A DNA stretch of 64,000 bases from an uncultured Legionellales bacterium (GCA_945957175.1 CAMFJL010000006.1:30137-94136); one strand, 5' to 3'; positions 4,665 through 47,138 are shown, numbered from the stretch's first letter. Notes: generated by a model not told the origin, from the letters alone. Program-made: numbers and translations.

Positions 4665-6311
<1,647 letters not shown>

Positions 6312-10792: not shown

Positions 10793-12309
<1,517 letters not shown>

Positions 12310-25342: not shown

Positions 25343-26111
25343 GGCGTAAATCTATCAACGGCGTATGACATATCCTGCAGGGAAGGGTGGCTCTATCGTA
25401 GACCTGGAGCGTTTGCTGAAAATAACCAGGTTTACCATCGACTTGACTAAAGTCTTTGAGTGTGGTGCCGCCCATGGCAATGGCCTTGGTTAGTAAGGTT
25501 TTGATGTGATAACAGAGTTTAGCGCAGGCATCTTTGCTAAGCTGGGTTGCGGGGGTTTTCGGATGAATACCTGCGGCAAATAAACTTTCATTCGCATAGA
25601 TATTACCAACGCCAACGACGATATGACTATCCATGATAACAAGCTTAATGGCACGATGACGACCTTGGCAAATCTGCCATAAATAATCCCCATGAAAAGC
25701 ATCCGTTAAAGGTTCTGGCCCTAAGCTTGCTAACAGTTTTACGGCCAGAGGACTTTCATGCCATAACAAACAGCCAAAACGTCTCGGATCGGTGTAACGT
25801 AGACACTGACCATTATCTAACAACCAGTCAATATGATCATGTTTCTGTGGCGGGAGCGAGTGGGGAAGTACCCGAAGCGTGCCGGACATGCCAAAGTGCC
25901 AAATAAGCTTGCCTTGAGTTGTTTCCAAGATAAGATATTTACTGCGTCGGTCAATAGCAAGTATACGAGCCTTGGGTAGACGTTTGGTAATGTGTTCGGC
26001 CACGGGCCAACGCAATTGCGCTTGTCTAACAATCACTTGTTTAATTTGTTGGCCAATGAGCAGTGGCGCAAGCCCTTGACGCGCAGTTTCGATTTCCGGC
26101 AATTCAGGCAT
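25287..26111 (-). CDS. mutM: formamidopyrimidine-DNA glycosylase
   Basis: MPELPEIE N-terminus (catalytic Pro2, Glu3) and a C-terminal CxxC…CxxC zinc finger; 274 aa. Confidence 0.85.
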   Translation of the reverse strand: MPELPEIETARQGLAPLLIGQQIKQVIVRQAQLRWPVAEHITKRLPKARILAIDRRSKYLILETTQGKLIWHFGMSGTLRVLPHSLPPQKHDHIDWLLDNGQCLRYTDPRRFGCLLWHESPLAVKLLASLGPEPLTDAFHGDYLWQICQGRHRAIKLVIMDSHIVVGVGNIYANESLFAAGIHPKTPATQLSKDACAKLCYHIKTLLTKAIAMGGTTLKDFSQVDGKPGYFQQTLQVYDRATLPCRICHTPLIDLRLNRRATVYCSQCQALEAE

Positions 26112-26117: not shown

Positions 26118-26387
26118 TTACTCCGCCTCACCAAAGCGTTGTTGTACCAGTTCATGTAAGGCCTTGAAGGCCTCTTGTTCGTCTTCACCGTCGATAATGA
26201 GCGTGAGTTCAGTTCCTTGACTGGCAGCGAGCAACATAACCCCCATGATACTTTTGGCGTTGATGCGCTGTGTACCTTTGCAGAGCTCAATATGGCTTTT
26301 AAATTGTCCGGCAACGGTGACCCATTTAGCTGAGGCTCTGGCATGCAGTCCTAATTGATTGATGATAGTAATGGGTTGGCTTAACAT
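26118..26387 (-). CDS. ptsO: HPr-like phosphocarrier protein (NPr/PtsO type)
   Basis: 89 aa with the GLHARAS active-site His region; last gene of the hpf-ptsN-hprK-rapZ cluster. Confidence 0.7.
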   Translation of the reverse strand: MLSQPITIINQLGLHARASAKWVTVAGQFKSHIELCKGTQRINAKSIMGVMLLAASQGTELTLIIDGEDEQEAFKALHELVQQRFGEAE

Positions 26388-26764
26388 AATCGAATGCCTT
26401 CACGACCGCCAATAAGTGCTTTATCTGCCAGTTCGTCCAAAGGTAAATCGGCATAATTGACTAACTTAAATAACATCGGCAAATTGACGCCGCTGATAAG
26501 ACGAAGCTTGTCATATGATTTAAGGGTAAGTGCCATATTACAAGGGGTTGCACCAAATACATCTGTCAAAATAAGGACACCGTCTTGGTTTGCGAGCGCG
26601 TCTAGTTTTTGTTGTAATTGTGCGTGCATTTGCTCAGGTGTCTGCTGGTAACTGACGGCGATCAGTTGCCAATGCGCGGGCAATTGTCCGAATGTGGTTT
26701 GCACAACTTGCGTCAGCGCTTGTCCCACATCTGTGTGGGTGACGAGTAAAACATGAACAGTCAT
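26381..26764 (-). CDS. PTS EIIA component, mannose/fructose family
   Basis: 127 aa with N-terminal VLLVTHTDVG of the EIIA-Man fold. It lies between rapZ and ptsO, as in beta and some gamma proteobacteria. Confidence 0.55.
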   Translation of the reverse strand: MTVHVLLVTHTDVGQALTQVVQTTFGQLPAHWQLIAVSYQQTPEQMHAQLQQKLDALANQDGVLILTDVFGATPCNMALTLKSYDKLRLISGVNLPMLFKLVNYADLPLDELADKALIGGREGIRLC

Positions 26765-27603
26765 TATAGCTCTCGGTGACGTACCTGTAGTTGAGGATAG
26801 TCAATGCGTAACTGTTTTGCCAGGGCTTCGGCTATAAAAACTGAACGATGTTGACCCCCAGTGCAGCCGATGGCTACCGTTAAATAATTACGATGGCTAT
26901 GAATAAATTCCGGGATCCAGTGTTTTAAGAACTTCGTGATGTCTTGTAACATGGTTTTGGTTTCGGGCTTTGTTTCTAAAAATGCCATCACTGGGGCGTC
27001 TAGGCCTGTATGTCCGCGCAATGCGGTTTGCCAATAGGGATTAGCAAGACATCGCACGTCGAATACGAAATCACTATCTGCAGGTACACCAAATTTAAAG
27101 CCAAAGGATTCAATGAGCAAAGATAAACCTTGATTTTTAGCGCCAACACGCGTGGTAATAGCTTGACGTAATTCGTGAACAGAATAATGGGTTGTGTCAA
27201 TACGAACGTCAGCAAGCTCTGCAATAGGTGCAAGCATTCGCTGCTCTTCGCGGATAGCTTCAGATAATGACAAGCTGGGACTTGTGAGTGGATGCTTACG
27301 TCGGGTTTCACTAAAGCGTTTCATGAGAGTTGCATCATCGGCGTCAAGATAAACGAGTTCACAACTGGTGCTTTGTTCTTTGAATTGTGTCAGTAGGGGA
27401 TAGAAGCTGGCTAATTCTTTGGGAAGATTTCGTGCATCGATGCCCAAAGCAAGCGATTCGTGGTGATCACCCATGTGGCTGATAAGCTCTGGGAGTAAAC
27501 TCACCGGTAGATTATCGAGGCAATAAAAACCAGCGTCTTCTAAGGCATGAAGACAGATGGATTTACCAGAGCCAGAGCGACCACTGATGATGACGATTCT
27601 CAC
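26764..27603 (-). CDS. rapZ: RNase adapter protein RapZ (YhbJ)
   Basis: 279 aa with Walker A GRSGSGKS and N-terminus MRIVIISG. The start codon is apparently GTG at 27603. Confidence 0.8.
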   Translation of the reverse strand: MRIVIISGRSGSGKSICLHALEDAGFYCLDNLPVSLLPELISHMGDHHESLALGIDARNLPKELASFYPLLTQFKEQSTSCELVYLDADDATLMKRFSETRRKHPLTSPSLSLSEAIREEQRMLAPIAELADVRIDTTHYSVHELRQAITTRVGAKNQGLSLLIESFGFKFGVPADSDFVFDVRCLANPYWQTALRGHTGLDAPVMAFLETKPETKTMLQDITKFLKHWIPEFIHSHRNYLTVAIGCTGGQHRSVFIAEALAKQLRIDYPQLQVRHREL

Positions 27604-27700
27604 GGTGTGTGCCTCATTGGGGGAGATAGAGTCATTATATCACGAGATGATCTCACGATGTTAACCGTAGGGCACGGTCATAACGATACTAAATTGTAGC

Positions 27701-27718
27701 GGCACGGCGTGCCGTGCC
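27701..27718. repeat. GC-rich palindromic element GGCACGGCGTGCCGTGCC (copy 1); an upstream half-copy GTAGGGCACGG lies at 27667-27677
   Basis: A perfect 8+2+8 palindrome 13 nt downstream of the hprK stop, in the hprK-rapZ spacer. The identical 18-mer recurs at 31157-31174. Confidence 0.6.
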
Positions 27719-27730
27719 CCAAAAGGTATG

Positions 27731-28276
27731 TTAAGGATTCAGCAGTTGTTCTTGTCTGGCAATAAATTCATCGGTAGCAAGGTAACCGTGTTGTTTAAGT
27801 ACTTGATTGCGCACAGCTGTTTCAATGAGCACAGCAATGTTACGACCGGGCGCGAGCGGTATAGTGACTTCGGGCACTTCAACATCCAAAATGCTTTGTT
27901 GCCGGTACATCCCTTGAAGCCGGTCCATCTGCGCAAGTTCTTCAGTGGAAAATAGCGCGACGTGCACAATGAGTTGTAAGCGTTTTTCTTGCTTGATAGC
28001 GTTATCGCCGTACATAACGCGAATATTTAAAATACCGAGACCGCGCACTTCTAAAAAATCCTGTAACAGTGGAGGACAACTGCCAATCAAGGTTTCTTTG
28101 TCGATTTGTTTAAAAGTAACCGCATCATCGGCTATCAGGCGATGTCCTCGATTAATGAGACCTAGTGCCAGCTCACTTTTACCGATGCCGCTGGCACCGG
28201 TTAACAAGACGCCAAGGCCCAATACATCGAGAAATACACCATGGAGTGTGGCTGTGTCATCTAAGCTGGTAGGCAT
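27731..28276 (-). CDS. hprK: HPr kinase/phosphorylase, kinase-domain-only short form
   Basis: 181 aa containing the P-loop GASGIGKSE and the HprK C-terminal domain. The upstream space is occupied by ptsN (16-nt overlap), so no N-terminal domain is possible. Confidence 0.65.
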   Translation of the reverse strand: MPTSLDDTATLHGVFLDVLGLGVLLTGASGIGKSELALGLINRGHRLIADDAVTFKQIDKETLIGSCPPLLQDFLEVRGLGILNIRVMYGDNAIKQEKRLQLIVHVALFSTEELAQMDRLQGMYRQQSILDVEVPEVTIPLAPGRNIAVLIETAVRNQVLKQHGYLATDEFIARQEQLLNP

Positions 28277-28734
28277 AGATTTGTTTCAATCAATTGATAA
28301 GCAACCATAGGATCCCTCGTTTGCCTAAGCGCTGTGGTTAAATGCGTTTGACGCAAAAAAGCAGCGATGGCTGCTAGGATTTGCAAATGGGTATTGTGTG
28401 CGGAGCTTGGTACAAACAAAGTCCACAATAAGTCGACCGGTTTGTGATCTTGGGCACTGTATTCGATAGGTTCAGCTAAGGTGACAATCACCATGGTTGG
28501 AATTGTCACCTCGTCAAGCCGACAATGCGGTAAGCCGAGACCATCACCTAAACCGGTGGCGCCCATGCGTTCTCTTGCGAGTAGGTGTTCATAAATGTTA
28601 TCTGCATCCATGCGATAGGTGGTTGCTGCGAGCTCACTAATGCGCTCAAGCGCACGCTTTTTACTCTCAACGACGAGCTTAAGCGCAATAGCATTCACAT
28701 CAAACTGGATAGGTAATTCGGTCAATAAGGACAT
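28261..28734 (-). CDS. ptsN: nitrogen-regulatory PTS EIIA-Ntr
   Basis: 157 aa with the GLGDGLGLPH active-site His motif. Confidence 0.75.
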   Translation of the reverse strand: MSLLTELPIQFDVNAIALKLVVESKKRALERISELAATTYRMDADNIYEHLLARERMGATGLGDGLGLPHCRLDEVTIPTMVIVTLAEPIEYSAQDHKPVDLLWTLFVPSSAHNTHLQILAAIAAFLRQTHLTTALRQTRDPMVAYQLIETNLCLPA

Positions 28735-28746
28735 AGCGGTACAGTT

Positions 28747-29100
28747 CTATTCGCGTTCCTCATCATGGATTTCGCGGTATTCTTTTTCGCGATGCTCCGT
28801 TTGTCTACCACGGTGATCTTTCAATTGGCGGTCAAGCTTGTCAACAAGTGCGTCAACGGCCGAGTACATATCCGCCTTGCTGTCAGCATCGGCATGAAAT
28901 ATTTTACCTGCAGCTTGAACAGTTGCTTTAGCAACATGATTAAATTTGTTTTCCATTTCAAAGGTGACATCGATGCTGATAATTTTATCAAAATGGCGTA
29001 AGAGTTTTGTAAATTTTTCATCAGTGAAGTCGCGCAATGCTTGGCTATTATCTAATTGATGGCCTGTATAATTAATACGCATGAAAGTCTCCTTAGGCAT
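28747..29100 (-). CDS. hpf: ribosome hibernation promoting factor (long HPF/RaiA family)
   Basis: 117 aa beginning MRINYTGHQL… with the YfiA/HPF fold pattern. AAGGAGA sits at -8. It heads the ptsN-hprK-rapZ cluster. Confidence 0.75.
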   Translation of the reverse strand: MPKETFMRINYTGHQLDNSQALRDFTDEKFTKLLRHFDKIISIDVTFEMENKFNHVAKATVQAAGKIFHADADSKADMYSAVDALVDKLDRQLKDHRGRQTEHREKEYREIHDEERE

Positions 29101-29306
29101 AAACAGAAAAGAGGTTTAAGCTATCGCTTACATGAAGCAAGCTTAACACTATTTTTAGTATAGTCAATTATATGCGCCTCGCGTCGCTTAGCTGACATTC
29201 CGTGATGTATATGCAGGGTGTCGCCTGAGCGGACAAAGCCACAAGATAAAACATAGCATTTTAAAGAAGCTTAGGTATACTTATGGCCTATAGCAAGGGG
29301 TATCGT

Positions 29307-30401
29307 ATGTCAGGCAATAGTTTCGGGCAGCTTTTTAGAATCACAACATCAGGTGAATCGCATGGCGGGGCCTTGGCTGTCATTATTGACGGTTGTCCGC
29401 CTGGACTTGAGATAACGGAATTTGATATTCAAGCCGAGCTAGATAGACGCAAACCAGGGCAAAGTGCAATTACCACGCCACGTAAAGAAGCGGATAGAAT
29501 CCATATTTGTTCAGGTGTTTTTGAGGGTAAAACCACGGGTACCCCCATCCTTTTGCAGGCCTACAATGAAGATGCACGTCCGGAAGATTATGATGTGCTC
29601 AAGCAAGTGTATCGTCCTTCGCATGCTGATTTTACCTACGAGATGAAGTATGGTTTGCGTGACTTTCGCGGTAGCGGCCGTGCAAGTGCAAGAGAAACCT
29701 TGGCAAGGGTTGCTGCAGGTGCTATCGCTAAAAAATATCTTAAATTGCACTATCAGATAGAGATCCTTAGCTATGTTGAACAAGTAGGTACGATTCGTAC
29801 GGATATGCCCCATGAAGCAGTGACCCTGGATGCGATTGAAAGTAATGTGGTGCGTTGCCCTGATGCTGATGTTGCCAGCAAGATGATCCAACGTATCGGA
29901 GAGGTACAACAACAAGGTGATTCCATCGGTGGCATTATTAAGGGCGTGATAAGACATGCGCCACCAGGCTTAGGTGAGCCGGTTTTTGATAAATTATCAG
30001 CTGATTTAGGCAAAGCGATGCTTAGCATTAATGCAGTCAAAGGTTTTGATATGGGTAGTGGATTTGAAGGCGTCTCGATGCTAGGTAGTGCGCATAATGA
30101 TATCTTTGTTGTAAAAAATAAGCACGTAACAACCAAAACGAATTATGCCGGTGGAACACTCGGTGGCATTTCCACAGGTGAAACGATTTATTTTCGTGTT
30201 GCTTTTAAGCCCGTGGCAACTATCAGCAAAACGCAAGAAACCATAAACAAAGCGCATGAGCCTATTTTACTTGCTGCTAAAGGTCGACATGACCCTTGTG
30301 TATTGCCACGTGCGGTACCTATTGTGGATGCAATGGCCGCTTTAGTGATAATGGATCATGTATTAAGACATAGAGCACAGGTCAGCACATCCCTATCGTG
30401 A
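29307..30401 (+). CDS. aroC: chorismate synthase
   Basis: [21 protein letters not shown]-terminus; 364 aa from the ATG at 29307. Confidence 0.85.
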
Positions 30402-30468
30402 TCAAATCATTGCTGTGCAGCAGCGCAGTGTGCTAAAGTGCTTTAAGCTAAACAGGGTGGTGTTTTAC

Positions 30469-31026
30469 ATGAATATTCCTAATATGTTAACGTTAGCACG
30501 TATTGTATTAATTCCTTTGTTTGTCGTGTTATTTTATCTACCATGGCATTTTACGCAAATGCTAACAACCATCATTTTTATCATTGCGGCGCTTACGGAT
30601 TGGTTAGATGGTTATCTTGCTAGAAGCCTTTCGCAAACCTCAAGATTGGGTGCTTTTTTAGATCCCGTTGCGGATAAATTGATTGTTGTGACTGCATTGA
30701 TTTTGCTAGTAGGTGCGAATCAGTTCCCTTATATTGCGGTGCCTGCGGCAGTGATTGCTGGTCGAGAGATAGCGATATCCGCTTTGCGTGAATGGATGGC
30801 AGAGCTTGGTAAGCGCACAAGTATTGCAGTGTCCATTCTCGGTAAAAGCAAGACAGTTTTACAGATGTTGGCGATCACTTTGTTATTGTTGGGGCGTAGC
30901 GAAAGCATACCCAATTATCATACCTTAGCAATGGTGGGCTATGGCCTGCTTTATGCGGCAGCAGTGATGACCTTGTGGTCCATGGTTATCTACCTTAAAA
31001 CCGCATGGCCGGAATTCCAAAAATAG
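30469..31026 (+). CDS. pgsA: CDP-diacylglycerol--glycerol-3-phosphate 3-phosphatidyltransferase
   Basis: MNIPNMLTLARIVLIPLFV aligns with the E. coli PgsA N-terminus. CDP-alcohol PTase motif D…G…AR…G…D; 185 aa. Confidence 0.8.
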   Translation: MNIPNMLTLARIVLIPLFVVLFYLPWHFTQMLTTIIFIIAALTDWLDGYLARSLSQTSRLGAFLDPVADKLIVVTALILLVGANQFPYIAVPAAVIAGREIAISALREWMAELGKRTSIAVSILGKSKTVLQMLAITLLLLGRSESIPNYHTLAMVGYGLLYAAAVMTLWSMVIYLKTAWPEFQK

Positions 31027-31124
31027 AGGTCCGGTGGTAACGATATGGCCGGAATTCCAAAAATAGAGGTCCGGTGGTAACGATATGGCCGGAATTCCAA
31101 AAATAGAGGTCCGGTGGTAACGAT
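31005..31124 (+). repeat. perfect 3x40-bp tandem direct repeat (unit ATGGCCGGAATTCCAAAAATAGAGGTCCGGTGGTAACGAT)
   Basis: The three units at 31005-31044, 31045-31084 and 31085-31124 are identical. Copy 1 contains the last 22 nt of pgsA (…W P E F Q K stop) plus 18 nt of 3'UTR. Confidence 0.9.
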
Positions 31125-31150
31125 ATTGACTGTAGAGACATAATGCTAAC

Positions 31151-31180
31151 TGTAAGGGCACGGCGTGCCGTGCCCTTACA
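31151..31180. repeat. GC-rich palindromic element (copy 2), extended to a 14+2+14 near-perfect palindrome TGTAAGGGCACGGC-GT-GCCGTGCCCTTACA
   Basis: Contains the same GGCACGGCGTGCCGTGCC core as 27701-27718. It lies between the 40-bp repeat array and the tRNA promoter. Confidence 0.6.
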
Positions 31181-31224
31181 AAAGCGTGCCGCACCTCTGC
31201 AAATAACAAATTCTTAAATAATAC

Positions 31225-31252
31225 TTGACAGCAGATCGCATTTCGCTAAAAT
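31225..31252 (+). promoter_or_regulatory. strong sigma70-like promoter of the tRNA cluster (TTGACA-16-TAAAAT)
   Basis: TTGACA at 31225-31230 and TAAAAT at 31247-31252. tRNA-Gly begins 13 nt downstream of the -10. Confidence 0.55.
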
Positions 31253-31264
31253 AGGCACCTGTCT

Positions 31265-31340
<76 letters not shown>

Positions 31341-31452
31341 ATATTTTTTCACTTTTCTATGCGTTCACATAGCTAAGTTGCTCTGATAAAGCATACAAAA
31401 GTGATTTTTCATCAGATGATAATCACCCAAGATTCGCATCCGATATGCAATT

Positions 31453-31526
31453 GGCTGGGTGGCAGAGTGGTCATGCAGCGGCCTGCAAAGCCGCGTACGC
31501 CGGTTCGATTCCGGCCTCAGCCTCCA
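31453..31526 (+). tRNA. tRNA-Cys (anticodon GCA)
   Basis: 74 nt, GGCTGGGTGGCAGAGTGG…CCTGCAAAGC…GGTTCGATTCCGGCCTCAGCCTCCA. Confidence 0.85.
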
Positions 31527-31546
31527 CGTTTTATGTGCGTTATTAT

Positions 31547-31635
31547 GCCCGGGTGGCGAAACAGGTAGACGCAAGGGACTTAAAATCCCTCGGGACTTAA
31601 ATCCCGTGCCGGTTCGACTCCGGCCCCGGGCACCA
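31547..31635 (+). tRNA. tRNA-Leu (anticodon TAA), long-variable-arm type
   Basis: 89 nt, GCCCGGGTGGCGAAACAGGTAGACGC…GACTTAAAATCCC…GGTTCGACTCCGGCCCCGGGCACCA. Confidence 0.85.
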
Positions 31636-31671
31636 CTTCCACCCTTTTTTCGATTGCATGGAAGCTTCCAC

Positions 31672-32442
31672 ATGCGCGTATTTACGAAAAAAACCAAGTC
31701 TCGGACTAAAATGCAAGTGTCGAGGCGAGTCACGCCTGGGCTCGTTGCCAATCATTCTTGGTCGTTTTGCCGTCGCTTTATGTGGCCATTGGCAGCGCTT
31801 TTTGCAATCATCATCATGTTTTACCTCCATGTCACCGTGCTTTTTCCTATCACAGCTGTGCGGGTTTACGACCCTGGCCTTCATATCGATCAACAAAGTA
31901 TTGTGAGTACCGTGAACCCCTTAGTCGACAATGGCTTTTTTGGTACCAATTTGGGACATATTAAAACTGCATTACAAGCCTTGCCTTGGGTTGCCATGGT
32001 GGATGTGTCAAGGCAATGGCCGGGGCGTATTGTGATCCATTTGTATGAGCGTGTGCCTTTAGCCAGGTGGAACCTGAATGACTTAGTCACCGCCGACGGT
32101 ATTATTTTTACGCCAGCCACAACGGACAGTATCCCTGACTTACCCCATTTATATGGGCCGCCGACTGAGGTTTTGCGCATGACTCAAGCGTATCTACGAT
32201 TTGTGACTGAGCTTGCGCCTTTACCACTGACTATCACCGCGGTGCGTTTATCTGAAAGATTATCGTGGGATTTACGCTTATCCAATGGTATGATACTCAA
32301 ATTAGGGCGGACCCAGATGCATGAGCGTTTGGTGCGTTTTGTGAAAGTTTACCCTCAAGTTTTTGCAAATAACAATAACAAAGCGGTGTATGTGGATTTA
32401 CGTTACAATCACGGCATGGCTGTGCGTTGGGCGAGTACCTAG
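31672..32442 (+). CDS. ftsQ: cell division protein FtsQ
   Basis: Short cytoplasmic N-terminus, one TM helix, then POTRA/FtsQ domains. It immediately precedes ftsA-ftsZ. I placed the start after the tRNAs at the ATG at 31672; the ORF-track N-extension runs through the tRNA genes. Confidence 0.65.
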   Translation: MRVFTKKTKSRTKMQVSRRVTPGLVANHSWSFCRRFMWPLAALFAIIIMFYLHVTVLFPITAVRVYDPGLHIDQQSIVSTVNPLVDNGFFGTNLGHIKTALQALPWVAMVDVSRQWPGRIVIHLYERVPLARWNLNDLVTADGIIFTPATTDSIPDLPHLYGPPTEVLRMTQAYLRFVTELAPLPLTITAVRLSERLSWDLRLSNGMILKLGRTQMHERLVRFVKVYPQVFANNNNKAVYVDLRYNHGMAVRWAST

Positions 32443-32487
32443 GGTTGTAAGTTAGGTTCATTTAGATGTGAGAGTTAAGGATCATCC

Positions 32488-33720
32488 ATGGCAAAACGTC
32501 GTGAAAAAAATATCCTAGTTGCATTGGATATTGGCAATTCAAAAATTGCCGCAGTGGTTGGTGAGATTCATGAAGATGGAAAGCTTGAGATTGTGGGCTT
32601 TGGTTCACATCCGTCAAAAGGCTTGAAACGAGGTGTCGTTGTGCACATTGATGCAACCATTGCATCGATTCAACGTGCAGTAGAAGAAGCGGAACTCATG
32701 ACGGGTTATCGCATTCATTCGGCATACACAGGTATTGCGGGTAATCACATCCAGGGCTTAAATTCGCATGGTATTGTGGCGATTAAAGCACAAGAAGTTA
32801 CAGAAGTTGATATTGAGCGCGTGCTGGATGCGGCAAAAGCGGTGGCTATCCCAGCGGATCAACAAATTCTACACGTATTACCACAAGAATTTATTATTGA
32901 CAGCCAACGTGGTATTCGTGAACCGATCGGGATGTCTGGCGTACGACTTGAATCACGCGTACATATGGTCGTGGGCTCTGTAAGCGCTGCACAAAATATT
33001 ATTAAATGCGTTGAGCGTTGTGGCTTAGATGTTGCGGATATTATTTTAGAACAAGTTGCTTCAAGTTATGCTGTGTTAACGGATGATGAAAAAGAATTAG
33101 GGGTGGCGCTTGTTGATATGGGCGGCGGTACATGTGATATTGCAGTCTATGTCGACGGGGCCATTGTCCATACAGCGGTTATACCGATTGCGGGCGATCA
33201 AGTGACGAATGATGTGGCGGTTGCTTTGCGTATTCCAACGCCGATTGCAGAAGAATTAAAGCGTCAATATGCATGTACTGAGGCAAAGCTCGGTGACGAT
33301 GCCGATGAGTTTTTACCAGCGCTTCCAGCCATGGAAAGACTCAGTAAACAAATTAGTCGGCGTATGCTCGCGCAAGTTGTCGAACCACGCTATGAAGAAT
33401 TATTAGCGCTTGTACAAGCTGAGTTGATTCGCGCGGGTGTTTTTGAGCTTATCTCTGCGGGTGTCGTGTTAACAGGCGGTTCTGCTAAAATGCCAGGTTT
33501 GATTGCGTTGGCGGAAGATTGTTTGCAAGTGCCTGTACGTTTAGGCGTGCCTTTGCATACTGAGGGTATTCAAGCTATCGTGAGCGATCCTATTTATGCC
33601 ACGGGCGTTGGTTTGCTGCATTATGGTTTAAAGCATCAGCATAGTGGTTCACAGCATGCGCCACGTGAGACAAAGGGGTTATTTGGGCGGATGCGTCAGT
33701 GGTTTCAAGGTCAGTTTTAG
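32488..33720 (+). CDS. ftsA: cell division protein FtsA
   Basis: 410-aa actin-fold protein (LDIGNSKI…, DMGGGTCDIAV). Confidence 0.85.
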   Translation: MAKRREKNILVALDIGNSKIAAVVGEIHEDGKLEIVGFGSHPSKGLKRGVVVHIDATIASIQRAVEEAELMTGYRIHSAYTGIAGNHIQGLNSHGIVAIKAQEVTEVDIERVLDAAKAVAIPADQQILHVLPQEFIIDSQRGIREPIGMSGVRLESRVHMVVGSVSAAQNIIKCVERCGLDVADIILEQVASSYAVLTDDEKELGVALVDMGGGTCDIAVYVDGAIVHTAVIPIAGDQVTNDVAVALRIPTPIAEELKRQYACTEAKLGDDADEFLPALPAMERLSKQISRRMLAQVVEPRYEELLALVQAELIRAGVFELISAGVVLTGGSAKMPGLIALAEDCLQVPVRLGVPLHTEGIQAIVSDPIYATGVGLLHYGLKHQHSGSQHAPRETKGLFGRMRQWFQGQF

Positions 33721-33740
33721 TTTTTTGAGGAGTCAGTTTT

Positions 33741-34913
33741 ATGTCAGCAATGATAGATAATAGGCATCAAGCCCGTATCAAAGTGATTGGGGTTGGCGGC
33801 GGTGGCGGCAATGCAGTTGAACATATGATGTCCGAAGCTTTTGAAGGCGTCGAATTTCTCGTTGCAAACACCGATGCGCAAGTGCTGCGTCGCTCCTCAG
33901 CGCCTACAATGCAACTCGGTGAGCAAATTACCAAAGGTTTGGGTGCCGGTGCAAACCCTGATATTGGTAGACAAGCAGCAGAAGAAGATTTAGAAAAGCT
34001 GCGTGTATTTTTAGCCGATACCGACATGATTTTCATTACAGCAGGTATGGGCGGCGGTACAGGTACTGGTGCTGCACCTGTTATTGCTAAACTTGCGAAA
34101 GATATGGGGATTTTAACGGTTGCAGTTGTCACTAAACCTTTTGCGTTTGAAGGTAAAGCCAGACTGCATATTGCAGAGCAAGGCATGCAGTCGCTTGGTC
34201 AATATGTCGATTCGTTGATTACTATCCCGAATAACAAATTATTGAGCGTGCTTGGTAAAAATATGACCTTGCTCAACGCATTTAAAGCTGCAAACAATGT
34301 ATTGCATGGTGCGGTTCAAGGTATTGCCGAGTTAATTACGCGTCCTGGACTTATTAACGTTGACTTTGCTGACGTGCGTACCGTGATGGCGGAAATGGGT
34401 ATGGCAATGATGGGTACGGGTATTGCTTCAGGTGAAAACCGTGCGCGCGATGCAGCGGAAGCAGCTATTGCGAGTCCCTTGCTTGAAGATATTAATTTGG
34501 TGGGTGCAAAAGGGGTCTTGGTTAATATCACAGCTGGCCTCAATATGTCCATCGGTGAATTTGAGGAAGTGGGTGAGGCGGTTAAGTGCTTTACTTCAGA
34601 TAATGCAACGGTTGTTGTGGGTACTGTTATCGATCCCGACATGGGCGACGAAATGCGCGTTACCGTAGTTGCGACAGGCTTAGGGCGAGTAGAGCCTGAA
34701 GCACCTGTTGTAGCAGCAACACCTTTAAGGCCGGGACAGTTACGTCAAGCAGAAACAGGCGCGATTGATTATCAACGTTTTGAGCGTCCTGCGGTGTTAC
34801 GTAAACAAGCGCCTGCGAGTCGCGCGCAATCAAGTCATACAAGTTCACAACAGCAGGATTTAGATTACTTGGATATTCCCGCCTTTTTACGTAAACAAGA
34901 AGAGGTTTCTTAA
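33741..34913 (+). CDS. ftsZ: cell division GTPase FtsZ
   Basis: The GGGTGTG tubulin signature and the NTD/CTD pattern; 390 aa; C-terminal DIPAFLRKQ peptide. Confidence 0.9.
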   Translation: MSAMIDNRHQARIKVIGVGGGGGNAVEHMMSEAFEGVEFLVANTDAQVLRRSSAPTMQLGEQITKGLGAGANPDIGRQAAEEDLEKLRVFLADTDMIFITAGMGGGTGTGAAPVIAKLAKDMGILTVAVVTKPFAFEGKARLHIAEQGMQSLGQYVDSLITIPNNKLLSVLGKNMTLLNAFKAANNVLHGAVQGIAELITRPGLINVDFADVRTVMAEMGMAMMGTGIASGENRARDAAEAAIASPLLEDINLVGAKGVLVNITAGLNMSIGEFEEVGEAVKCFTSDNATVVVGTVIDPDMGDEMRVTVVATGLGRVEPEAPVVAATPLRPGQLRQAETGAIDYQRFERPAVLRKQAPASRAQSSHTSSQQQDLDYLDIPAFLRKQEEVS

Positions 34914-34914
34914 T

Positions 34915-36195
34915 ATGGCACGACGCGATTTGAGGTCTTTATGGATAGCTTTGGCCACTGCGGGCTTGCTAGCCAGTGCAACAGCATCTTATGCGGATAC
35001 CACATTAGATGCTATGAATTCATTGGCACCTGCACCTGCTGCGCAGCAGGTGACGGGCAATCGTGCGATTATCATTCCGTCGGCACCGGAGGTGACAGCT
35101 AAGTCCTTTATTTTGATGGATGCAGATAGTGGTGTTGTCATCGCCTCGAATAATCCTGATTTGCGTTTACCGCCTGCCAGTTTGACGAAACTTATGACTT
35201 TATATGTGGTTTTTGGCGCTTTAAAAAATGGCCAAGTTCATTTAACAGATCAGGTGCCTATTAGCGAGAAAGCGTGGCGTACCGGCGGTTCTAAGATGTT
35301 TGTGAAGGTTGGCGATACGGTGCCATTCAATGACTTACTACAAGGCGTTATTGTTGCTTCAGGTAATGATTCTGCAATTGCACTGGCAGAATATGTAGCC
35401 GGCAGTGAAGATGCTTTTGTGAGCCTCATGAATCAAGAAGCCAAGAGTTTAGGGCTTAAAAATAGTCATTTTTCTGATTGCAATGGTTTGCCGGCACCCG
35501 ATCATTATTCATCTGCACACGATTTTGCTATATTAGCAAACCATATTATTCATGATTATCCCCAATACTATCCAATGTTTTCAGAAAAAGACTTTGTTTA
35601 CAATAATATTAAACAGCCTAATCGTAACCGTTTGTTGTGGCGTTATCAGTATGCCGATGGTCTTAAAACCGGTCATACGGATGCAGCGGGCTATTGTTTA
35701 GTGGCATCAGCTAAACAAAACGGCATGCGTCTTATTAGCGTAGTGATGGGTGAACCAACAGAGCCGGCACGCGTCAATGATAGTATTGCCTTGTTTACTT
35801 ATGGTTATCGCTTTTATAAGACCTATCAACTTTATGGCGCTAATCAAGCGATGACGCAAGCACGCGTTTGGCAGGGCCAGGATGCAAATGTATCCATTGG
35901 TCTTACAAAACCCTTATTTGTGACGGTACCTATCGGTCAATATAATAAGCTTTCCGCAGCTGCAAACATACAGCAACCTATTTTTGCACCGATTGCCCAA
36001 GGTCAAGTGTTAGGCCAAGTGGATGTCACTCTTGATGGTAAACCTTTGTTAATACAACCGCTAGTTGCATTGAGTGCTGATCCCAAAGGTAATCTGTGGC
36101 GACGCCTAGCAGACAAAGTGAGTTTATCCTTACACAATATGTTAAAGAAAAAAGAAACCGCGAATACGAAGGTGACCAGCAGTAATAATGCCTAA
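34915..36195 (+). CDS. dacC: D-alanyl-D-alanine carboxypeptidase (PBP5/6 family)
   Basis: Signal peptide, then the SLTK (SxxK), SGN and KTG motifs and a PBP5 C-terminal domain. It starts 2 nt after the ftsZ stop. Confidence 0.75.
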   Translation: MARRDLRSLWIALATAGLLASATASYADTTLDAMNSLAPAPAAQQVTGNRAIIIPSAPEVTAKSFILMDADSGVVIASNNPDLRLPPASLTKLMTLYVVFGALKNGQVHLTDQVPISEKAWRTGGSKMFVKVGDTVPFNDLLQGVIVASGNDSAIALAEYVAGSEDAFVSLMNQEAKSLGLKNSHFSDCNGLPAPDHYSSAHDFAILANHIIHDYPQYYPMFSEKDFVYNNIKQPNRNRLLWRYQYADGLKTGHTDAAGYCLVASAKQNGMRLISVVMGEPTEPARVNDSIALFTYGYRFYKTYQLYGANQAMTQARVWQGQDANVSIGLTKPLFVTVPIGQYNKLSAAANIQQPIFAPIAQGQVLGQVDVTLDGKPLLIQPLVALSADPKGNLWRRLADKVSLSLHNMLKKKETANTKVTSSNNA

Positions 36196-37180
36196 TTTAT
36201 CACTCAAACCTAAACCGCATACAGACGTTTGTGCCCTTGCTAAGCATGTGGTACAGACAGAAGCGGAAGCTGTTCAAGCGCTGGCGGCACGCATTGATGC
36301 AAGTTTTGTGGATGCGTGTCAATGTCTTTTGAATGTGCAAGGCCGGATCATTGTGATGGGCGTTGGTAAATCAGGTCATATTGCGCGGAAAGTAGCGGCG
36401 ACCTTAGCTAGCACCGGCAGCCCTGCTTTTTATATTCACCCAGCAGAAGCAAGTCATGGCGATACCGGTATGATAACAACACAAGATGCAGTTGTTATCA
36501 TTTCTTATTCGGGTGAAACACCGGAATTACTCGTGCTGTTACCAGCATTGGCGCACCTTAAAGTACCTATAGTTGCCTTAACCGGTGCAACGGATTCAAC
36601 CATTGCAAGGTATGCGAATTATCACCTTGACGTATCCGTGACACGAGAGGCTTGTCCCTTAGGTTTAGCGCCAACTACAAGCACCACAACAGCGCTTGCT
36701 ATGGGCGATGCGCTCGCGCTAAGCTTGCTTGAATTACGCGGTTTTACCGCTGAAGGTTTTGCATTTGCCCACCCAGGCGGTAGTTTGGGTCGACAGTTAT
36801 TAAAAGTCGGTGATTTAATGAGTAAGGGGGATGCACTACCTAAAGTTGTGCTCAACACGCGTTTGAGCGATGCATTATGGGAAATGAGTCGCCAGGGTCT
36901 TGGTATGACGACAGTGCTTGACGATGTTGGCCATTTACTTGGTATTTTCACAGATGGTGATTTGCGTCGAACGCTGGATCAAGATGTTGATATAAAAAAT
37001 ACTGTCATTGAAACGGTGATGCACACACATCCTAAGACAACCACAGATACAACGTTAGCAACACAAGCGTTGCAAATAATGGAAGCTTTTAAAATTACCA
37101 GTCTTGTAGTGCTGAATGCTGAAAATTGCGTTGTTGGCATCATTCATATTCATCATTTGTTGCGTGCAGGTGTGAGATAA
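36188..37180 (+). CDS. kdsD: arabinose-5-phosphate isomerase (SIS + CBS pair)
   Basis: 330 aa with GVGKSGHIA SIS motifs and a C-terminal CBS pair; first gene of the kdsD-kdsC-lptCAB order. Confidence 0.8.
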   Translation: MPNLSLKPKPHTDVCALAKHVVQTEAEAVQALAARIDASFVDACQCLLNVQGRIIVMGVGKSGHIARKVAATLASTGSPAFYIHPAEASHGDTGMITTQDAVVIISYSGETPELLVLLPALAHLKVPIVALTGATDSTIARYANYHLDVSVTREACPLGLAPTTSTTTALAMGDALALSLLELRGFTAEGFAFAHPGGSLGRQLLKVGDLMSKGDALPKVVLNTRLSDALWEMSRQGLGMTTVLDDVGHLLGIFTDGDLRRTLDQDVDIKNTVIETVMHTHPKTTTDTTLATQALQIMEAFKITSLVVLNAENCVVGIIHIHHLLRAGVR

Positions 37181-37713
37181 TGGTGGATTTAAACACCCGC
37201 ACCGAAGCCATTCGCTTGGTCGCATTTGATGTGGATGGGGTTTTTTCAGATGGTCGTATTTACTATAACAGCCAAGGTGTTGAAACCAAGGCATTTCACG
37301 TTCACGATGGGCTTGGCGTGCAGCTACTTAAAAAAGCAGGCATTATTACTGCAATTATCACGGGTCGACAATCCGCCATTGTGACTAAGCGCATGGATGA
37401 GCTCGGCATTGATTATGTATATCAAGCCTGTCAAGATAAATGGTTTACCTTACAACAGCTACAAAAATCACTGAATATAGCAGCGCACCAAGTTGCTTAC
37501 ATGGGTGATGATTTACCTGATTTAGCTTGTATGCAATCTGTTGGTTTGGCATTAGCGCCAGCTAATGCGCATAGTCGTATCCGCACTGCGGCACATTATG
37601 TAACACGTGCTTCTGCAGGCGATGGCGCTGTGCGCGAAGCCTGCGATTTTATTTTAACGGTCCAGCAAAAATTAGCTTCGCTTACAGCATTTTTCGAGGT
37701 AAGCGATGCATAA
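37180..37713 (+). CDS. kdsC: 3-deoxy-D-manno-octulosonate 8-phosphate phosphatase
   Basis: HAD fold with the AFDVDGVFSDG motif I. The TAATG overlap with kdsD fixes the start at 37180. Confidence 0.75.
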   Translation: MVDLNTRTEAIRLVAFDVDGVFSDGRIYYNSQGVETKAFHVHDGLGVQLLKKAGIITAIITGRQSAIVTKRMDELGIDYVYQACQDKWFTLQQLQKSLNIAAHQVAYMGDDLPDLACMQSVGLALAPANAHSRIRTAAHYVTRASAGDGAVREACDFILTVQQKLASLTAFFEVSDA

Positions 37714-38326
37714 TTACCAAAGTCGCGCCTGGCTTAAGTGGTTATCACTTCGCCACGTGGCAACTTTGCTTGTTTTATTTATTGCTTTTGCCTATTCAGC
37801 TTGGTTAATTAAGGTAACATCACCCAAAACACAAGAAGAACGCTATAGTGATAAAATTCCCGATTATTATCTCACAGATGTTGTGGCGTTAGAATTCAAT
37901 GAACAAGGGCAATTATTACATCAATTGCTTTCACCTAAAGTGATACATATACCATCAGACGATACGGTCTTATTAAAAGCACCGCATATTACCGTCTATT
38001 CCACGGATGTGCCGCCTCAAGCACCATGGCAAATTACGGCGCTCCATGGCAAAACCATTGAAAACAATAAGTATGCTTGGCTCTGGAATCAGGTCGTATT
38101 ACACCAACCAAGTAGCGCACAAAATAAGGAAATGACCATTTTAACGAGTCGCATGCGTGTGGTGCCTTCAGAGAATATTGCTGACACGCATGCACCTGTG
38201 ACGGTGATTCAACCGGGATTAGAAGTCCATTCCATTGGTATGCGGGCATTCCTTAAAGAAAAACGTGTTGACCTACTGAGTCGAGCACAAGGGGTTTATG
38301 ATGTTAATGCTGCGGGCGATAATTAG
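37706..38326 (+). CDS. lptC: LPS export protein LptC
   Basis: Single N-terminal TM helix, about 200 aa, and its position before lptA. Confidence 0.65.
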   Translation: MHNYQSRAWLKWLSLRHVATLLVLFIAFAYSAWLIKVTSPKTQEERYSDKIPDYYLTDVVALEFNEQGQLLHQLLSPKVIHIPSDDTVLLKAPHITVYSTDVPPQAPWQITALHGKTIENNKYAWLWNQVVLHQPSSAQNKEMTILTSRMRVVPSENIADTHAPVTVIQPGLEVHSIGMRAFLKEKRVDLLSRAQGVYDVNAAGDN

Positions 38327-38840
38327 TTTTTGTGCGCTGCTCATGGTAGCGTTCAACTGGCAATTGTCATGGGCCTTGCCCTCTGACGCGCAAGCCACCA
38401 TGTATATTAGCGCAAAGTCGGCTCAAGTTGATAAGCTAACGGGTGACAGTGTATACATCGGCGATGTCAAAGTTGATAGGGGCACGACACATGTCACGGC
38501 GGATAAGCTTACGGTTCACAGTGTTAATGGTAAGGCAGTATTATTAACGGCTTATGGTCATCCTGGGTTGTTAGCGCATTATCAAACTCAAACAGATGTG
38601 AATAAGCCAGTCTTAGATGCCTATGCACTGGTGATGAAGTATTATCCACCTCAGCATGTTGTTGAGCTTATCGGGAGTGCGCATGTGACCCAGGGACATA
38701 ATCAAGTTGATGGTCCACATTTGCAATATGATTTAAATAATAAAGTGCTAGTCACGGTTCAAGATGATACAAATGCGCCGGCAAAAACATTGTTTGTTAT
38801 CGATCCTAATGAATTAAATAGTAGTGGAAATTCACAATGA
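38298..38840 (+). CDS. lptA: LPS export periplasmic protein LptA
   Basis: Signal peptide plus an OstA-N beta-jellyroll repeat pattern; 180 aa. Confidence 0.7.
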
Positions 38841-39562
38841 CGACATTACGTGCAGAACATTTGTCTAAATCCTATAAGAAACGCCGGGTTGTGAAAGATG
38901 TTTCGATTCACATTACTCAGGGTGAAATTGTAGGACTATTAGGACCCAATGGTGCAGGCAAAACCACCAGCTTCTATATGATCGTAGGTTTAGTGCGAAG
39001 TGACGATGGGCGCATTTACCTTGATGATAATGAGATTACGTCGTTGAGTATTCATGAACGTGCCAAATTGGGTTTAGGTTATCTACCGCAGGAGGCTTCC
39101 GTCTTTCGCAAATTGAGTGTGGCTGACAATGTTATGGCTATTTTGCAGTTACGTAAAGAGTTAACACAAACCGAGCGCTCGCAAATCTTAGATAATTTGC
39201 TACATGAGTTTCATATTCAACACTTACATGATGCCATGGGTATGAGCTTATCAGGTGGGGAGCGAAGACGGGTGGAAATTGCAAGAGCCCTTGCCGCTGA
39301 TCCTCAGTTTATCCTACTGGATGAGCCTTTTGCGGGCGTGGATCCCATTTCAGTGATTGATATTAAACGGATTATTTCGCATTTACGCGACAGAGGTATC
39401 GGTATTTTAATTACCGACCATAATGTACGTGAAACGCTAGATATTTGTGAGCGTGCTTATATTGTTAACGAAGGTCAAATTATTTGTTCGGGTAATGCCG
39501 AAACTATTCTTTCCAATCAGCAGGTACGCGACGTCTATTTAGGCGAAGATTTTGATCTTTAA
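38837..39562 (+). CDS. lptB: LPS export ABC transporter ATPase LptB
   Basis: Walker [10 protein letters not shown], signature LSGGE, 241 aa; an ATGA overlap couples it to lptA. Confidence 0.85.
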
Positions 39563-39580: not shown

Positions 39581-40624
39581 ATGGCGCAATTAGTTAACCC
39601 GCAAGCCTTATCATTTCACGATGTCTTATTGGTACCCCAGTATAGTGAGGTGGAAAGCCGATTAGACACGGACCTTACAACCAAGCTAACTAAACAACTG
39701 AGCATTGCGCATCCTGTTTGTGCAACTAATATGAGTACGGTGACCAGTGGCGGCATGTTAAGTGCAATGGCCAATACCGGTAGTGTGGGCTTATTGCATC
39801 GCTTTATGTCACATCACAAGATCATTCACAAATGTCAGACGTTTCGCCAGCAGCAGCCGAATGCTATCTTGATCCCGTCCATTGGCGTTAAAGCAGAGGA
39901 TTATGCGCTCGTAGATGCGCTAGTCGATAAGGTCAATCCTAATGCCTTGCTTGTCGATATTGCCCATGGCGATGCAGCACATGCTTACAAAATGTTGACA
40001 TATATTAAGCAACATTACGCTGATGTCGAAGTTATTTTTGGTAATTTAGCGACCGGTGCGGCGGCTAAGCGAGCTGTGGAAGCAGGTGCCGATGCTGTGC
40101 GTATGGGTATTGGTGGTGGCTCTTGTTGCACAACACGTACACAAACAGGCCACGGTGTTGCAACCTTGCAATCGATTGCGGATGCTTATGAGGTGTGTGC
40201 ACCTTATGATGTGCCAGTCTTAGGCGATGGCGGTTTCACGACGCCAGGGGATATTGTGAAAGCGCTGGCTTTTGGTGCAAGTGCAGTGACACTCGGGCGC
40301 ATGCTTGCCGGCACGTCAGCGGCACCTGGTGAGGTATTCGATGTCAAAGGCGAGAAATATAAAATTATGTATGGTATGTCATCTAATATGGCGCAAGAGA
40401 TTCATAAAGGTGGTATGAAACAAGGCATCGCCGCTGAGGGGCGTGCGATTCAAATTGCGTATCAAGGACATACAGAAGATGTTGTTGCTGATATTGTTGC
40501 AGCCATTCGTTCAGGACTTACCTATTCAGGTGCACGTAATCTTGTCGAGCTACGAGATAAGGCAGAATACGTCATTATTAGCACCGGCGGTATGCGCGAG
40601 AGTAAATTAATGGAAGGGGCCTAG
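39581..40624 (+). CDS. guaC: GMP reductase
   Basis: 347 aa, the same length as E. coli GuaC, with no CBS insert. The motifs …TNMSTV…, GIGGGSCCTTR, GDGGFTTPGDIVKA and MYGMSS are collinear with GuaC. Confidence 0.7.
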   Translation: MAQLVNPQALSFHDVLLVPQYSEVESRLDTDLTTKLTKQLSIAHPVCATNMSTVTSGGMLSAMANTGSVGLLHRFMSHHKIIHKCQTFRQQQPNAILIPSIGVKAEDYALVDALVDKVNPNALLVDIAHGDAAHAYKMLTYIKQHYADVEVIFGNLATGAAAKRAVEAGADAVRMGIGGGSCCTTRTQTGHGVATLQSIADAYEVCAPYDVPVLGDGGFTTPGDIVKALAFGASAVTLGRMLAGTSAAPGEVFDVKGEKYKIMYGMSSNMAQEIHKGGMKQGIAAEGRAIQIAYQGHTEDVVADIVAAIRSGLTYSGARNLVELRDKAEYVIISTGGMRESKLMEGA

Positions 40625-41994
40625 TGTTGACAACGAAAACGATACATACCTTAAGTGATATGACGCCCATGATGGCGCCACAGCATGCGCTTATCAACGA
40701 TGTTTTAATGCAAGCAAAAAAACTGGGTAGCAGCGAAGCTTCTGCGGAGATCCAATTTTCTGAAGGTTTTGATGTGGATGTGCGTTTAGGCGATGTTGAT
40801 AAAGTGAGTTTTAGGCGCGATCAAGGTTTAAGTGTGACGCTTTATCATGGCAAGCAATGTGGTACAGCAACAAGCACAGATTTAACGCCAGCCTCGATTC
40901 GCGCAACGGTTGAAAAAGCCTGGACCATGGCACAGTTTTGTGAGGCTGATGCGGCTAATGGTTTGCCAGATAAAGCTAAACAAGCCTTTGCTTACTCAGA
41001 TTTGCATTTGCACACGCCATGGCAAATCACGCCAGAACAAGCGATTTCACAAGCAACTGAAGCAGAAGCGCAAGGTCTTGCGTATGATTCACGCATTGTC
41101 AATTCAGAAGGTGCCAGTGTAAGCACGACTCAGCAATTGTTTACCTACGGCGATAGCCAAGGATTTATTGGTAGCTATCCTTCAAGTATACATAGCTTAT
41201 CTGTTTGTTTAATCGCAGGTGCTGACGGGCAGATGGAGCGTGACTACGATTATGCGCTTGCAAGAGATCCAAAAAAATTAGGAGATTTTGCCTTATTAGC
41301 CAAGCTTGCTGCGGATAAAGCAGTAAAACGATTATCACCTAAACCTATTAAAACAGGCCATTATCCAGTGATTTTATTGCCGGAAGTGGCGCGTGGTTTC
41401 TTATCACACCTTATCAGTGCTTTATATGGTAGTAGCTTATATAAGCGCATGTCATTTTTAGTTGATAGTCTAGGTCAAGCGGTGCTGCCAACAGAAATTA
41501 GCCTATTAGAACAGCCACATTTGTTAGGTGCTGTCGGCAGTGCACCGTTTGATGCTGAAGGTGTTGCGACGCAAGAGCAAATGCTGATTGAGGAAGGTCG
41601 TGTCGCACGTTATGTATTAGGCAGTTATTCTGCACGTAAATTAGGTTTAGAAACGACAGGTAATGCAGGCGGCATTCATAATGTCACGGTACAAAGTAGT
41701 AAACCACAACCAGATTTACCGACATTGATAGCAGATATGGATGATGGTTTAGTGATTACCGACGTAATGGGACAGGGTGTGAATTTAATTACAGGTGATT
41801 ACTCGCGTGGCGCCAGTGGTTTTTTAGTGAAAGCAGGTAAAATTGTACATCCTGTTTCGGAGATTACGCTAGCAGGGCATTTACGCGAGTTGTATCGCGA
41901 CATCATCGCGATTGCTAATGATGTCGACTTACGCGGCAATATCCGCACCGGTTCGATTTTATTAAAACAAATGATGGTTGCTAGTGCACCATAG
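40624..41994 (+). CDS. pmbA: metalloprotease PmbA (TldE)
   Basis: 456 aa, collinear with E. coli PmbA (…TLYHGKQCGTATSTDLTP…, GVNLITGDYSRGASGFLVKAGKI). Confidence 0.75.
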   Translation: MLTTKTIHTLSDMTPMMAPQHALINDVLMQAKKLGSSEASAEIQFSEGFDVDVRLGDVDKVSFRRDQGLSVTLYHGKQCGTATSTDLTPASIRATVEKAWTMAQFCEADAANGLPDKAKQAFAYSDLHLHTPWQITPEQAISQATEAEAQGLAYDSRIVNSEGASVSTTQQLFTYGDSQGFIGSYPSSIHSLSVCLIAGADGQMERDYDYALARDPKKLGDFALLAKLAADKAVKRLSPKPIKTGHYPVILLPEVARGFLSHLISALYGSSLYKRMSFLVDSLGQAVLPTEISLLEQPHLLGAVGSAPFDAEGVATQEQMLIEEGRVARYVLGSYSARKLGLETTGNAGGIHNVTVQSSKPQPDLPTLIADMDDGLVITDVMGQGVNLITGDYSRGASGFLVKAGKIVHPVSEITLAGHLRELYRDIIAIANDVDLRGNIRTGSILLKQMMVASAP

Positions 41995-46151: not shown

Positions 46152-46364
46152 TGTATTGAAACCTTGTTATTTGACTACAATTGTGATATAACGTCGCGAC
46201 GCTCTATGTTCCAAGGGAACGTAGAGTGAAGTATAGACGAAAACACACACTTATGGTTAACACTATTTTGGGTGCCTAAGGTCTTTCCCTGTTTAGCATA
46301 AGCAAGGGATTACTTAGGTGAAATCGTGTTGTAAGTGGAGGCTTAACCCAAGAGGAGTAGATAC

Positions 46365-47138
46365 ATGGCCCACGTGAGCTTACGAGAAATGTTACAAGAA
46401 GGTGTCCACTTTGGTCACCAAACCCGTTATTGGAATCCTAAAATGGCCCCCTTTATTTTTGGGGTTAATCGCAAGATTCATATCATCGATTTAGAGCAAA
46501 CGCAGCGATTATTTGAAGATGCGCTCAATGCTATCAGCCGTATTGCTAGCAATCGCGGTAAGATTCTTTTTGTAGGTACGAAATACGCTGCACAAGATGC
46601 TGTGCGAGAAGCTGCAGAAAGCTGTGGTATGCCTTATGTCAACCATCGTTGGTTAGGTGGTATGTTGACTAATTACAAAACCATACGTCAACAAATCCGT
46701 CGGTTGAACGATTTAATTCGTATGAGTGTCGATGGTACCTTAAAGCACTTAACGAAGAAAGAAGGCTTAACTATCATGCGCGAGCAAGAAAAGTTAGAAC
46801 GAAGCCTTGGCGGGATTAAAGAGATGGGTGGTTTACCCGATGCTTTATTTATTATCGATGTCGGTCATGAAGATATTGCGGTCAAAGAAGCCAAACGTCT
46901 TGGTATTCCCGTGATTGGTATCGTTGATACCAACAATACCCCCGATGATATCGATTACATTATCCCTGGTAATGATGATGCAACGCGCGCTATTCGCCTT
47001 TACTGCAATAAAGCAGCAGAAGTGATTAACCAAGCCAAAGAAGCCTTGCAACTGTCTCAAGGCGGTGCTCAAAAAGATGACGTTGCTATAGACGCACCTG
47101 CGACACCTGCGCCTGAAGCACCTGCTGACGAAGCGTAA
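46365..47138 (+). CDS. rpsB: 30S ribosomal protein S2
   Basis: [27 protein letters not shown] is the canonical S2 N-terminus. Confidence 0.9.

Follow-up and report, generated by a model that had tools for sequence, protein, structure and literature searches.

An ancestral proteobacterial cluster around rpoN, the gene of sigma-54, has been proposed to contain rpoN, hprK, ptsO, ptsN and the EIIA-Man gene, and to have been dismantled later by rearrangements (Comas et al. 2008, PMC2405797). Francke et al. 2011 (PMC3162934) described the conserved context lptABC-kdsCD-rpoN-hpf-PTS-Ntr-yhbJ, where PTS is the phosphotransferase system, and noted host-associated lineages in which sigma-54 is absent. 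In the canonical cluster of E. coli yrbG-mla stands on one side and kdsDC-lptCAB-rpoN-hpf-ptsN-rapZ-npr on the other, while an extended form in beta- and gammaproteobacteria adds hprK and EIIA-Man (PMC2405797, PMC3162934). In the present study we examine the counterpart of this cluster in a 64,000-nt stretch of DNA, hereafter the window, from an organism that we treat as an uncultured Legionellales-related gammaproteobacterium on the basis of the source names of its closest protein matches. Here the cluster lies in two halves on opposite strands, kdsD to lptB and hpf to ptsO, and rpoN stands at neither junction. The best explanation overall, to which we assign a probability of about 0.85, is an old, lineage-specific, multi-step rearrangement of the ancestral block in which the hpf-to-ptsO module was kept, most likely with a promoter of its own.

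Compared with the canonical cluster, the window has the same genes except rpoN, in the same order and packing inside kdsDC-lptCAB and inside hpf-ptsN-hprK-rapZ-EIIA(Man)-ptsO. It differs in that a guaC-like gene, and not rpoN, comes after lptB, that the hpf module lies on the other strand, upstream of kdsD and divergent from aroC, and that mlaFEDCB is not divergent from kdsD, which is abutted by dacC. A search of genome contigs with LptB gave, among the matches listed, 80 gammaproteobacterial lptB loci with 10-kb flanks (78 informative), and rpoN was counted as linked when its start lay at most 600 bp from lptB. It followed lptB directly in 67 of the 78 loci, most of which go on with hpf-ptsN-(hprK)-rapZ; the 11 loci without it belong to Legionella moravica, Psychrobacter (four), Moraxella (one), Haemophilus, Gallibacterium, a Solimonas metagenome-assembled genome (MAG) and Thiotrichales MAGs (two). 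A broken lptB-rpoN link is a minority state that recurs in several lineages.

Several of these and other known arrangements resemble the window in part. The Pasteurellaceae (H. influenzae and Gallibacterium; L041 and L024) have lptB-ptsN-rapZ and thus keep PTS-Ntr and RapZ genes with no rpoN nearby, but their remnants are collinear with lptB and no hpf, hprK or EIIA-Man was found among them, whereas the window has the full six-gene module, detached and inverted. In alphaproteobacteria such as Brucella, hprK-EIIA-Man-NPr is unlinked from rpoN-hpf-ptsN. Neisseria is similar in having an HprK/NPr/EIIA regulatory PTS with an inactive sigma-54 (PMC3162934), but a remnant of rpoN persists in it and none is found at the junctions of the window; both Neisseria and the alphaproteobacteria represent other lineages with other breakpoints. 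In the related taxon L. moravica (L022) kdsD...lptB is likewise not continued by rpoN, hpf or ptsN, but trpG/trpD/trpC-like genes follow lptB where the window has guaC-like-pmbA, and Legionella keeps rpoN elsewhere (PMC9803151). Other lineages (Pasteurellaceae, Neisseria, alphaproteobacteria) already provide examples of a PTS-Ntr/HprK/RapZ module without linkage to rpoN, and the present locus, which fails the defining adjacencies of the canonical cluster and keeps both sub-modules, is a lineage-specific instance of a known phenomenon. As one more lineage with a dismantled rpoN neighbourhood it matters little beyond cataloguing.

Gene order at the junctions and in relatives

Open reading frames (ORFs) of the window were identified by NCBIfam profile scans, tRNAs by ARAGORN, repeats by TRF and non-coding RNAs by Rfam. 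The gene list and order in a preliminary description of this DNA, with the coordinates given there, were reproduced by the ORF map, the tRNA scan and NCBIfam. Its claim that the canonical block is split over both strands with rpoN at neither junction was borne out by NCBIfam, motif search and tblastn. The genes concerned are the following.

26118-26387, minus strand: ptsO, NPr/HPr-family phosphocarrier (TIGR01003, 97.9 bits)
26381-26764, minus strand: EIIA-Man-family PTS protein (NCBIfam AgaF/EIIA-man; PF03610 in the orthologues of L091, L092, L093 and L096, see below)
26764-27603, minus strand: rapZ, RNase adapter (NF003828, 350 bits, above the cut-off)
27731-28276, minus strand: short hprK of 181 amino acids (TIGR00679, 242.7 bits, profile positions 128-298 of 300)
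28261-28734, minus strand: ptsN, EIIA-Ntr (NF008145/TIGR01419, about 111 bits)
28747-29100, minus strand: hpf, ribosome hibernation-promoting factor (TIGR00741, 78 bits, above the cut-off)
29283-30401, plus strand: aroC, chorismate synthase (NF003793, 462 bits), divergent from hpf; the left junction
30415-31026, plus strand: pgsA (TIGR00560, 180.7 bits)
31672-34913, plus strand: ftsQ-ftsA-ftsZ (NCBIfam FtsQ/FtsA/FtsZ; start of ftsQ from the gene call in L001)
34915-36195, plus strand: dacC-type D-Ala-D-Ala carboxypeptidase (NCBIfam serine-type DD-carboxypeptidase, 350 bits, below the equivalog cut-offs)
36188-39562, plus strand: kdsD-kdsC-lptC-lptA-lptB (NCBIfam KdsD, KdsC, LptC, LptA, LptB)
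39581-40624, plus strand: gene of the IMP dehydrogenase (IMPDH)/GMP-reductase family ('guaC-like'), in the position of rpoN in the outgroups; the right junction
40624-41994, plus strand: pmbA (NF008268, 438.5 bits)
7648-12309, plus strand: mlaF-mlaE-mlaD-mlaC-(mlaB)-(ibaG/bolA-like)-murA (NCBIfam MlaF/MlaE/MlaD/MlaC/MurA; STAS and BolA from gene calls in L098)

The lptB-side and hpf-side halves lie about 7 kb apart, with mla-murA 24 kb away on the strand of kdsD, and the three fragments of the ancestral block all fall within 32 kb. From kdsD (36188-37180) to lptB (38837-39562) the genes are contiguous and co-directional, with abutting or overlapping ORFs, and they belong to one dense co-directional array that runs from ftsQ to pmbA (31.7-42.0 kb; spacers -29 to +45 bp), in which dacC begins 1 bp past ftsZ and shares its last 8 bp with kdsD. 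The spacers at the junctions measure only 182 bp (hpf-aroC) and 18 bp (lptB-guaC-like), so that there is no room for a relic or pseudogene of rpoN. No RpoN-box motif was found in any frame of the 64 kb, and tblastn against the window gave no match with Vibrio RpoN, nor, at E<=10, with the RpoN of a Legionellales MAG. The hpf gene had been described as starting at 29100; the gene stands, but translation more likely begins from the ATG at 29082, since a ribosome-binding site (AAGGAG) lies upstream of it and the resulting protein has 111 amino acids, compared with 111-112 in the orthologues. The guaC-like protein reaches 220-227 bits with its best NCBIfam profiles, below the cut-offs for IMP dehydrogenase (481) and GMP reductase (397); it is of the IMPDH family without a CBS domain, and a bona fide guaB is present at 4686-6311.

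Database searches traced the exact proteins of the window to metagenome assemblies of ENA and Logan only. Their nearest named homologues are labelled "MAG: Legionellales bacterium" (FtsZ 73-75% and RapZ 56-58% identity). Outside the clade the identity of RapZ is 53-60% among the matches listed, and the best identity of LptB among the genome-contig matches listed is 72%. A scan of metagenome contigs with PtsN returned only two distant short contigs.

Two contigs of the JGI assembly 3300014198 carry the same halves with the same outer neighbours as the window. L085 (FtsZ 89%) reads ftsZ-dacC-kdsD-kdsC-lptC-lptA-lptB-guaC-like-pmbA, and L091 (RapZ 80%) reads hpf-ptsN-hprK-rapZ-EIIA-ptsO-fpg-GDH-tsaB-yoaA, with GDH for glutamate dehydrogenase. 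Their nucleotide identity to the window is about 72%, with a nonsynonymous divergence (dN) of 0.08-0.30 per gene and a synonymous divergence (dS) that is saturated or undefined. Positions 1-1075 of L085 are an inverted copy of its own ftsQ/ftsA region, a contig-end artefact to be disregarded for synteny. In a third, more distant lineage (L092; RapZ 73%) pgsA is divergent from hpf-ptsN-hprK-rapZ-EIIA-ptsO, with neither rpoN nor aroC in that place.

The outgroups show the canonical order. In the Legionellales MAG GCA_002707205.1 (L093; FtsZ 75%, RapZ 58%) bolA-mlaBCDEF is divergent from an unbroken kdsD-kdsC-lptC-lptA-lptB-rpoN-hpf-ptsN-hprK-rapZ-EIIA(Man)-ptsO, and a PilS/PilR sigma-54 activator pair is located near the block. 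In L096 (FtsZ 76%) the C-terminus of RpoN, with the box ARRTISKYR, is encoded directly upstream of hpf-ptsN-hprK-rapZ-EIIA-ptsO. These two outgroups bear out the earlier view of the collinear block as the ancestral state, which places the origin of the split on the branch to the clade of the window, L085/L091 and L092.

The detached module, its putative promoter and the age of the split

The six-gene hpf/PTS-Ntr/HprK/RapZ module is intact and under purifying selection. NPr has its active-site His in GLHARAS and the HprK-target Ser in AKSIMG (equivalent to His-15 and Ser-46), PtsN keeps the phosphorylatable His in GLGLPHCR, and RapZ has an intact Walker A motif (GRSGSGKS) and C-terminal CTGGQHRSV. 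HprK consists of the catalytic C-terminal domain only, with the Walker A/P-loop GASGIGKSE. In comparison with the relative, dN of the module genes is far below dS. As the genes abut or overlap they are presumably co-transcribed. The case shows a module selected as a unit, independent of linkage to rpoN and lptB.

Upstream of hpf, at 29137-29167 on the minus strand, we found a 31-bp element, TTGACTATACTnAAAnTAnTGnTAAGCTTGC, which is near-invariant in the window, L091 and L092 despite the saturated dS. It occurs once in the window, where 0 occurrences are expected, and neither outgroup has it between rpoN and hpf. A -35 (TTGACT) and an extended -10 (TGnTAAGCT), separated by 16 nt, make the element look like a putative sigma-70-type promoter, possibly with an operator, of the detached operon. 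The hpf-aroC spacer would then most likely supply the module with a sigma-70-type promoter of its own, and transcription would need no read-through from lptB or rpoN. The TTGC in the element prompted us to consider a sigma-54 (-24/-12) site, which was rejected as no GG precedes the TTGC by 11 nt. On the plus strand the element overlaps a promoter-like site for aroC (29143-29171), and it may be a bidirectional control region.

Base composition bears on the age of the split. The GC skew of the plus strand remains positive through the inverted cluster, and the skew at third codon positions (GC3 skew) on the coding strand is -0.07 to -0.38 in all six minus-strand genes; expressed for the plus strand, its sign is that of nearly all neighbours, with only kdsC differing. 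A recently inverted leading-strand segment is expected to show the opposite sign of GC3 skew. The equilibrated skew together with the conservation across saturated dS rules out a recent event.

Further, the rearrangement is too extensive for one step. Four ancestral adjacencies are broken: mlaF/kdsD, lptB/rpoN, rpoN/hpf and ptsO/rhomboid. In the outgroups murC-murB-ftsQAZ forms the end of the dcw cluster, with lpxC next in two of three (L087, L094), whereas in the window ftsQAZ has been removed from the dcw cluster and lies after tRNA genes and ahead of dacC-kdsD, with no lpxC following and the other mur genes elsewhere. Because mla-murA stands separately at 7.6-12.3 kb on the plus strand, at least four breakpoints are needed and a single inversion is insufficient. 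In the ancestor of the clade, successive rearrangements would have split mlaFEDCB and the adjoining kdsDC-lptCAB-rpoN-hpf-ptsN-hprK-rapZ-EIIA(Man)-ptsO at several of the operon boundaries, as part of a general genome scrambling that fragmented the dcw cluster as well. One piece would have become mla-murA, another the inverted hpf-to-ptsO operon reading away from aroC, and a third the kdsD-to-lptB operon, fused behind ftsQAZ-dacC and ahead of the guaC-like gene and pmbA, while both junctions lost rpoN. How many steps there were, and in what order, we infer. The canonical outgroup and the scrambled clade form a clean pair for studying how operons gain promoters after rearrangement.

The preliminary description had instead proposed that one recent inversion or translocation, with its breakpoints right beside rpoN, produced the layout. 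Such an event would account for rpoN missing precisely between the retained halves and for the inversion of the hpf cluster relative to kdsD-lptB, and the outgroups are collinear, but we consider it very improbable. The split was found throughout the clade (window, L085/L091 and L092), with both halves conserved at about 72% DNA identity and saturated dS, the third lineage lacks rpoN there too, and the GC3 skew is equilibrated; besides, mla(-) next to kdsD..lptB-rpoN-hpf..ptsO(+) cannot yield mla(+)...hpf-cluster(-)...fts-dacC-kdsD..lptB(+) by one inversion. An assembly or binning artefact, with the junctions lying on a chimeric metagenomic contig, has an almost negligible chance of being correct. 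It could be argued from the fact that the organism is known from metagenome assemblies only, from a contig (L002) that breaks within the 40-bp repeat at the end of pgsA, and from the inverted duplication at the end of L085. However, identical sequence (100%) is found in four independent metagenome assemblies (ERZ12289976, with a 152-kb contig, ERZ12289969, ERZ12289970 and Logan SRR9109405), so the gene order is not an assembly artefact. The lptB-guaC-like junction is among the sequence shared by all four, and the hpf-aroC junction is internal to the 152-kb contig, besides which the search counted five more similar places. The diverged relatives share the lptB-guaC-like adjacency and have an equivalent hpf/pgsA adjacency, and the element upstream of hpf is conserved between lineages. 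The split order with rpoN at neither junction is confirmed as real. On the other side of the balance for the old, multi-step rearrangement, the L091 contig stops 138 bp upstream of hpf, and the absence of rpoN at that junction is not directly visible; a consensus promoter scanner called only the plus-strand site in the hpf-aroC spacer; the taxonomic placement hangs solely on the names mentioned above; and closer genomes may exist beyond the matches listed in the LptB scan of genome contigs.

Fate of rpoN

With about 9 kb added at either end from the contig NODE_102, which has a coverage of about 15x and a GC content of about 44%, the examined sequence came to 81.8 kb. In these 81.8 kb neither RpoN nor any GAFTGA-type AAA+ sigma-54 activator was detected. 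The exact -24/-12 consensus did not occur, and matches with one mismatch numbered 9 against about 5 expected by our own estimate, which is near chance in a small sample. The EI-Ntr gene ptsP, which is normally unlinked from the PTS-Ntr cluster, was not seen in the 81.8 kb either. The gene glnA (L101 18199-19611), about 8 kb beyond the right end of the window, begins 35 bp past a thioredoxin-like gene, and the genes after it are unrelated; the locus is without ntrB/ntrC and leaves no space for an NtrC/sigma-54 control region of the glnAp2 type.

Whether rpoN was deleted or relocated comes out at roughly even odds. Deletion in the clade ancestor, which would leave a clade without sigma-54 that still keeps its lipopolysaccharide (LPS) export genes and PTS-Ntr/HprK/RapZ, falls slightly short of an even chance in our judgement. 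It agrees with the lack of RpoN, activators and exact -24/-12 sites in the 81.8 kb and with a glnA devoid of ntrBC, and Coxiella burnetii is not known to have rpoN. Sigma-54 is also typically absent in endosymbiotic and facultative intracellular diderms (PMC3162934), and HprK is here of the truncated kind found in Coxiella and alphaproteobacteria (PMC2405797). On the other hand, the 81.8 kb are a small part of the genome, the density of breakpoints is so high that two of them flanking rpoN are not improbable, and L. moravica offers a precedent in which lptB, followed by trp genes, lies apart from rpoN. The contig also carries the type IV pilus genes pilB/pilC, and genes of this type are often controlled by PilR/sigma-54. 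Further, rpoN is kept by both outgroups, by Ca. Berkiella and by Legionella (PMC9803151). The same retention in the nearest outgroups, Legionella and Berkiella speaks for relocation. In that case rpoN would persist as a transcription unit of its own at another genomic site, as it does in Legionella, with sigma-54 regulation still operating; we give this an even chance. In the clade the ancestral block has been broken at almost all of its operon boundaries, and the examined sequence is dense, with biosynthetic and respiratory genes and no strong genome reduction. Against relocation, 81.8 kb without rpoN or an activator hold no direct sign of its presence.

Slightly more doubtful is a combined picture in which a so far undescribed Legionellales-related clade lost sigma-54, keeps the six-gene module under purifying selection on a new, clade-specific sigma-70 promoter, and has its LPS-export operon fused to ftsQAZ-dacC as a new envelope/division super-operon. 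If the clade is truly without sigma-54, it would join proteobacterial lineages such as Francisella, Neisseria and many endosymbionts and be a further data point tying the loss of sigma-54 to a host-associated lifestyle in Legionellales.

Other features of the window

The remaining features around the two halves are listed here.

25287-26111, minus strand: fpg (NCBIfam)
31005-31126: perfect 40-bp tandem repeat, 3.0 copies (TRF, 100% matches, score 244)
31265-31635, plus strand: tRNA-Gly(GCC), tRNA-Cys(GCA) and tRNA-Leu(TAA) (ARAGORN; Rfam RF00005)

The first unit of the 40-bp repeat includes the final codons and the stop of pgsA. The contig L002 ends inside the repeat, at 31032, which may indicate variation of the copy number between samples. 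The tRNA trio preceding ftsQ has a textbook TTGACA/TAAAAT promoter at 31226-31254. Between fpg and the gene of an NAD-glutamate dehydrogenase of 1613 amino acids there is an ORF of 319 amino acids (24383-25342) that matches no NCBIfam profile and shares 56 bp with the 3' end of fpg; in L091 no gene is called at the equivalent position. The sole non-tRNA Rfam match in the window is a t44 RNA at 46226-46347 (51.6 bits, gathering threshold 44), upstream of rpsB (46365-47138).

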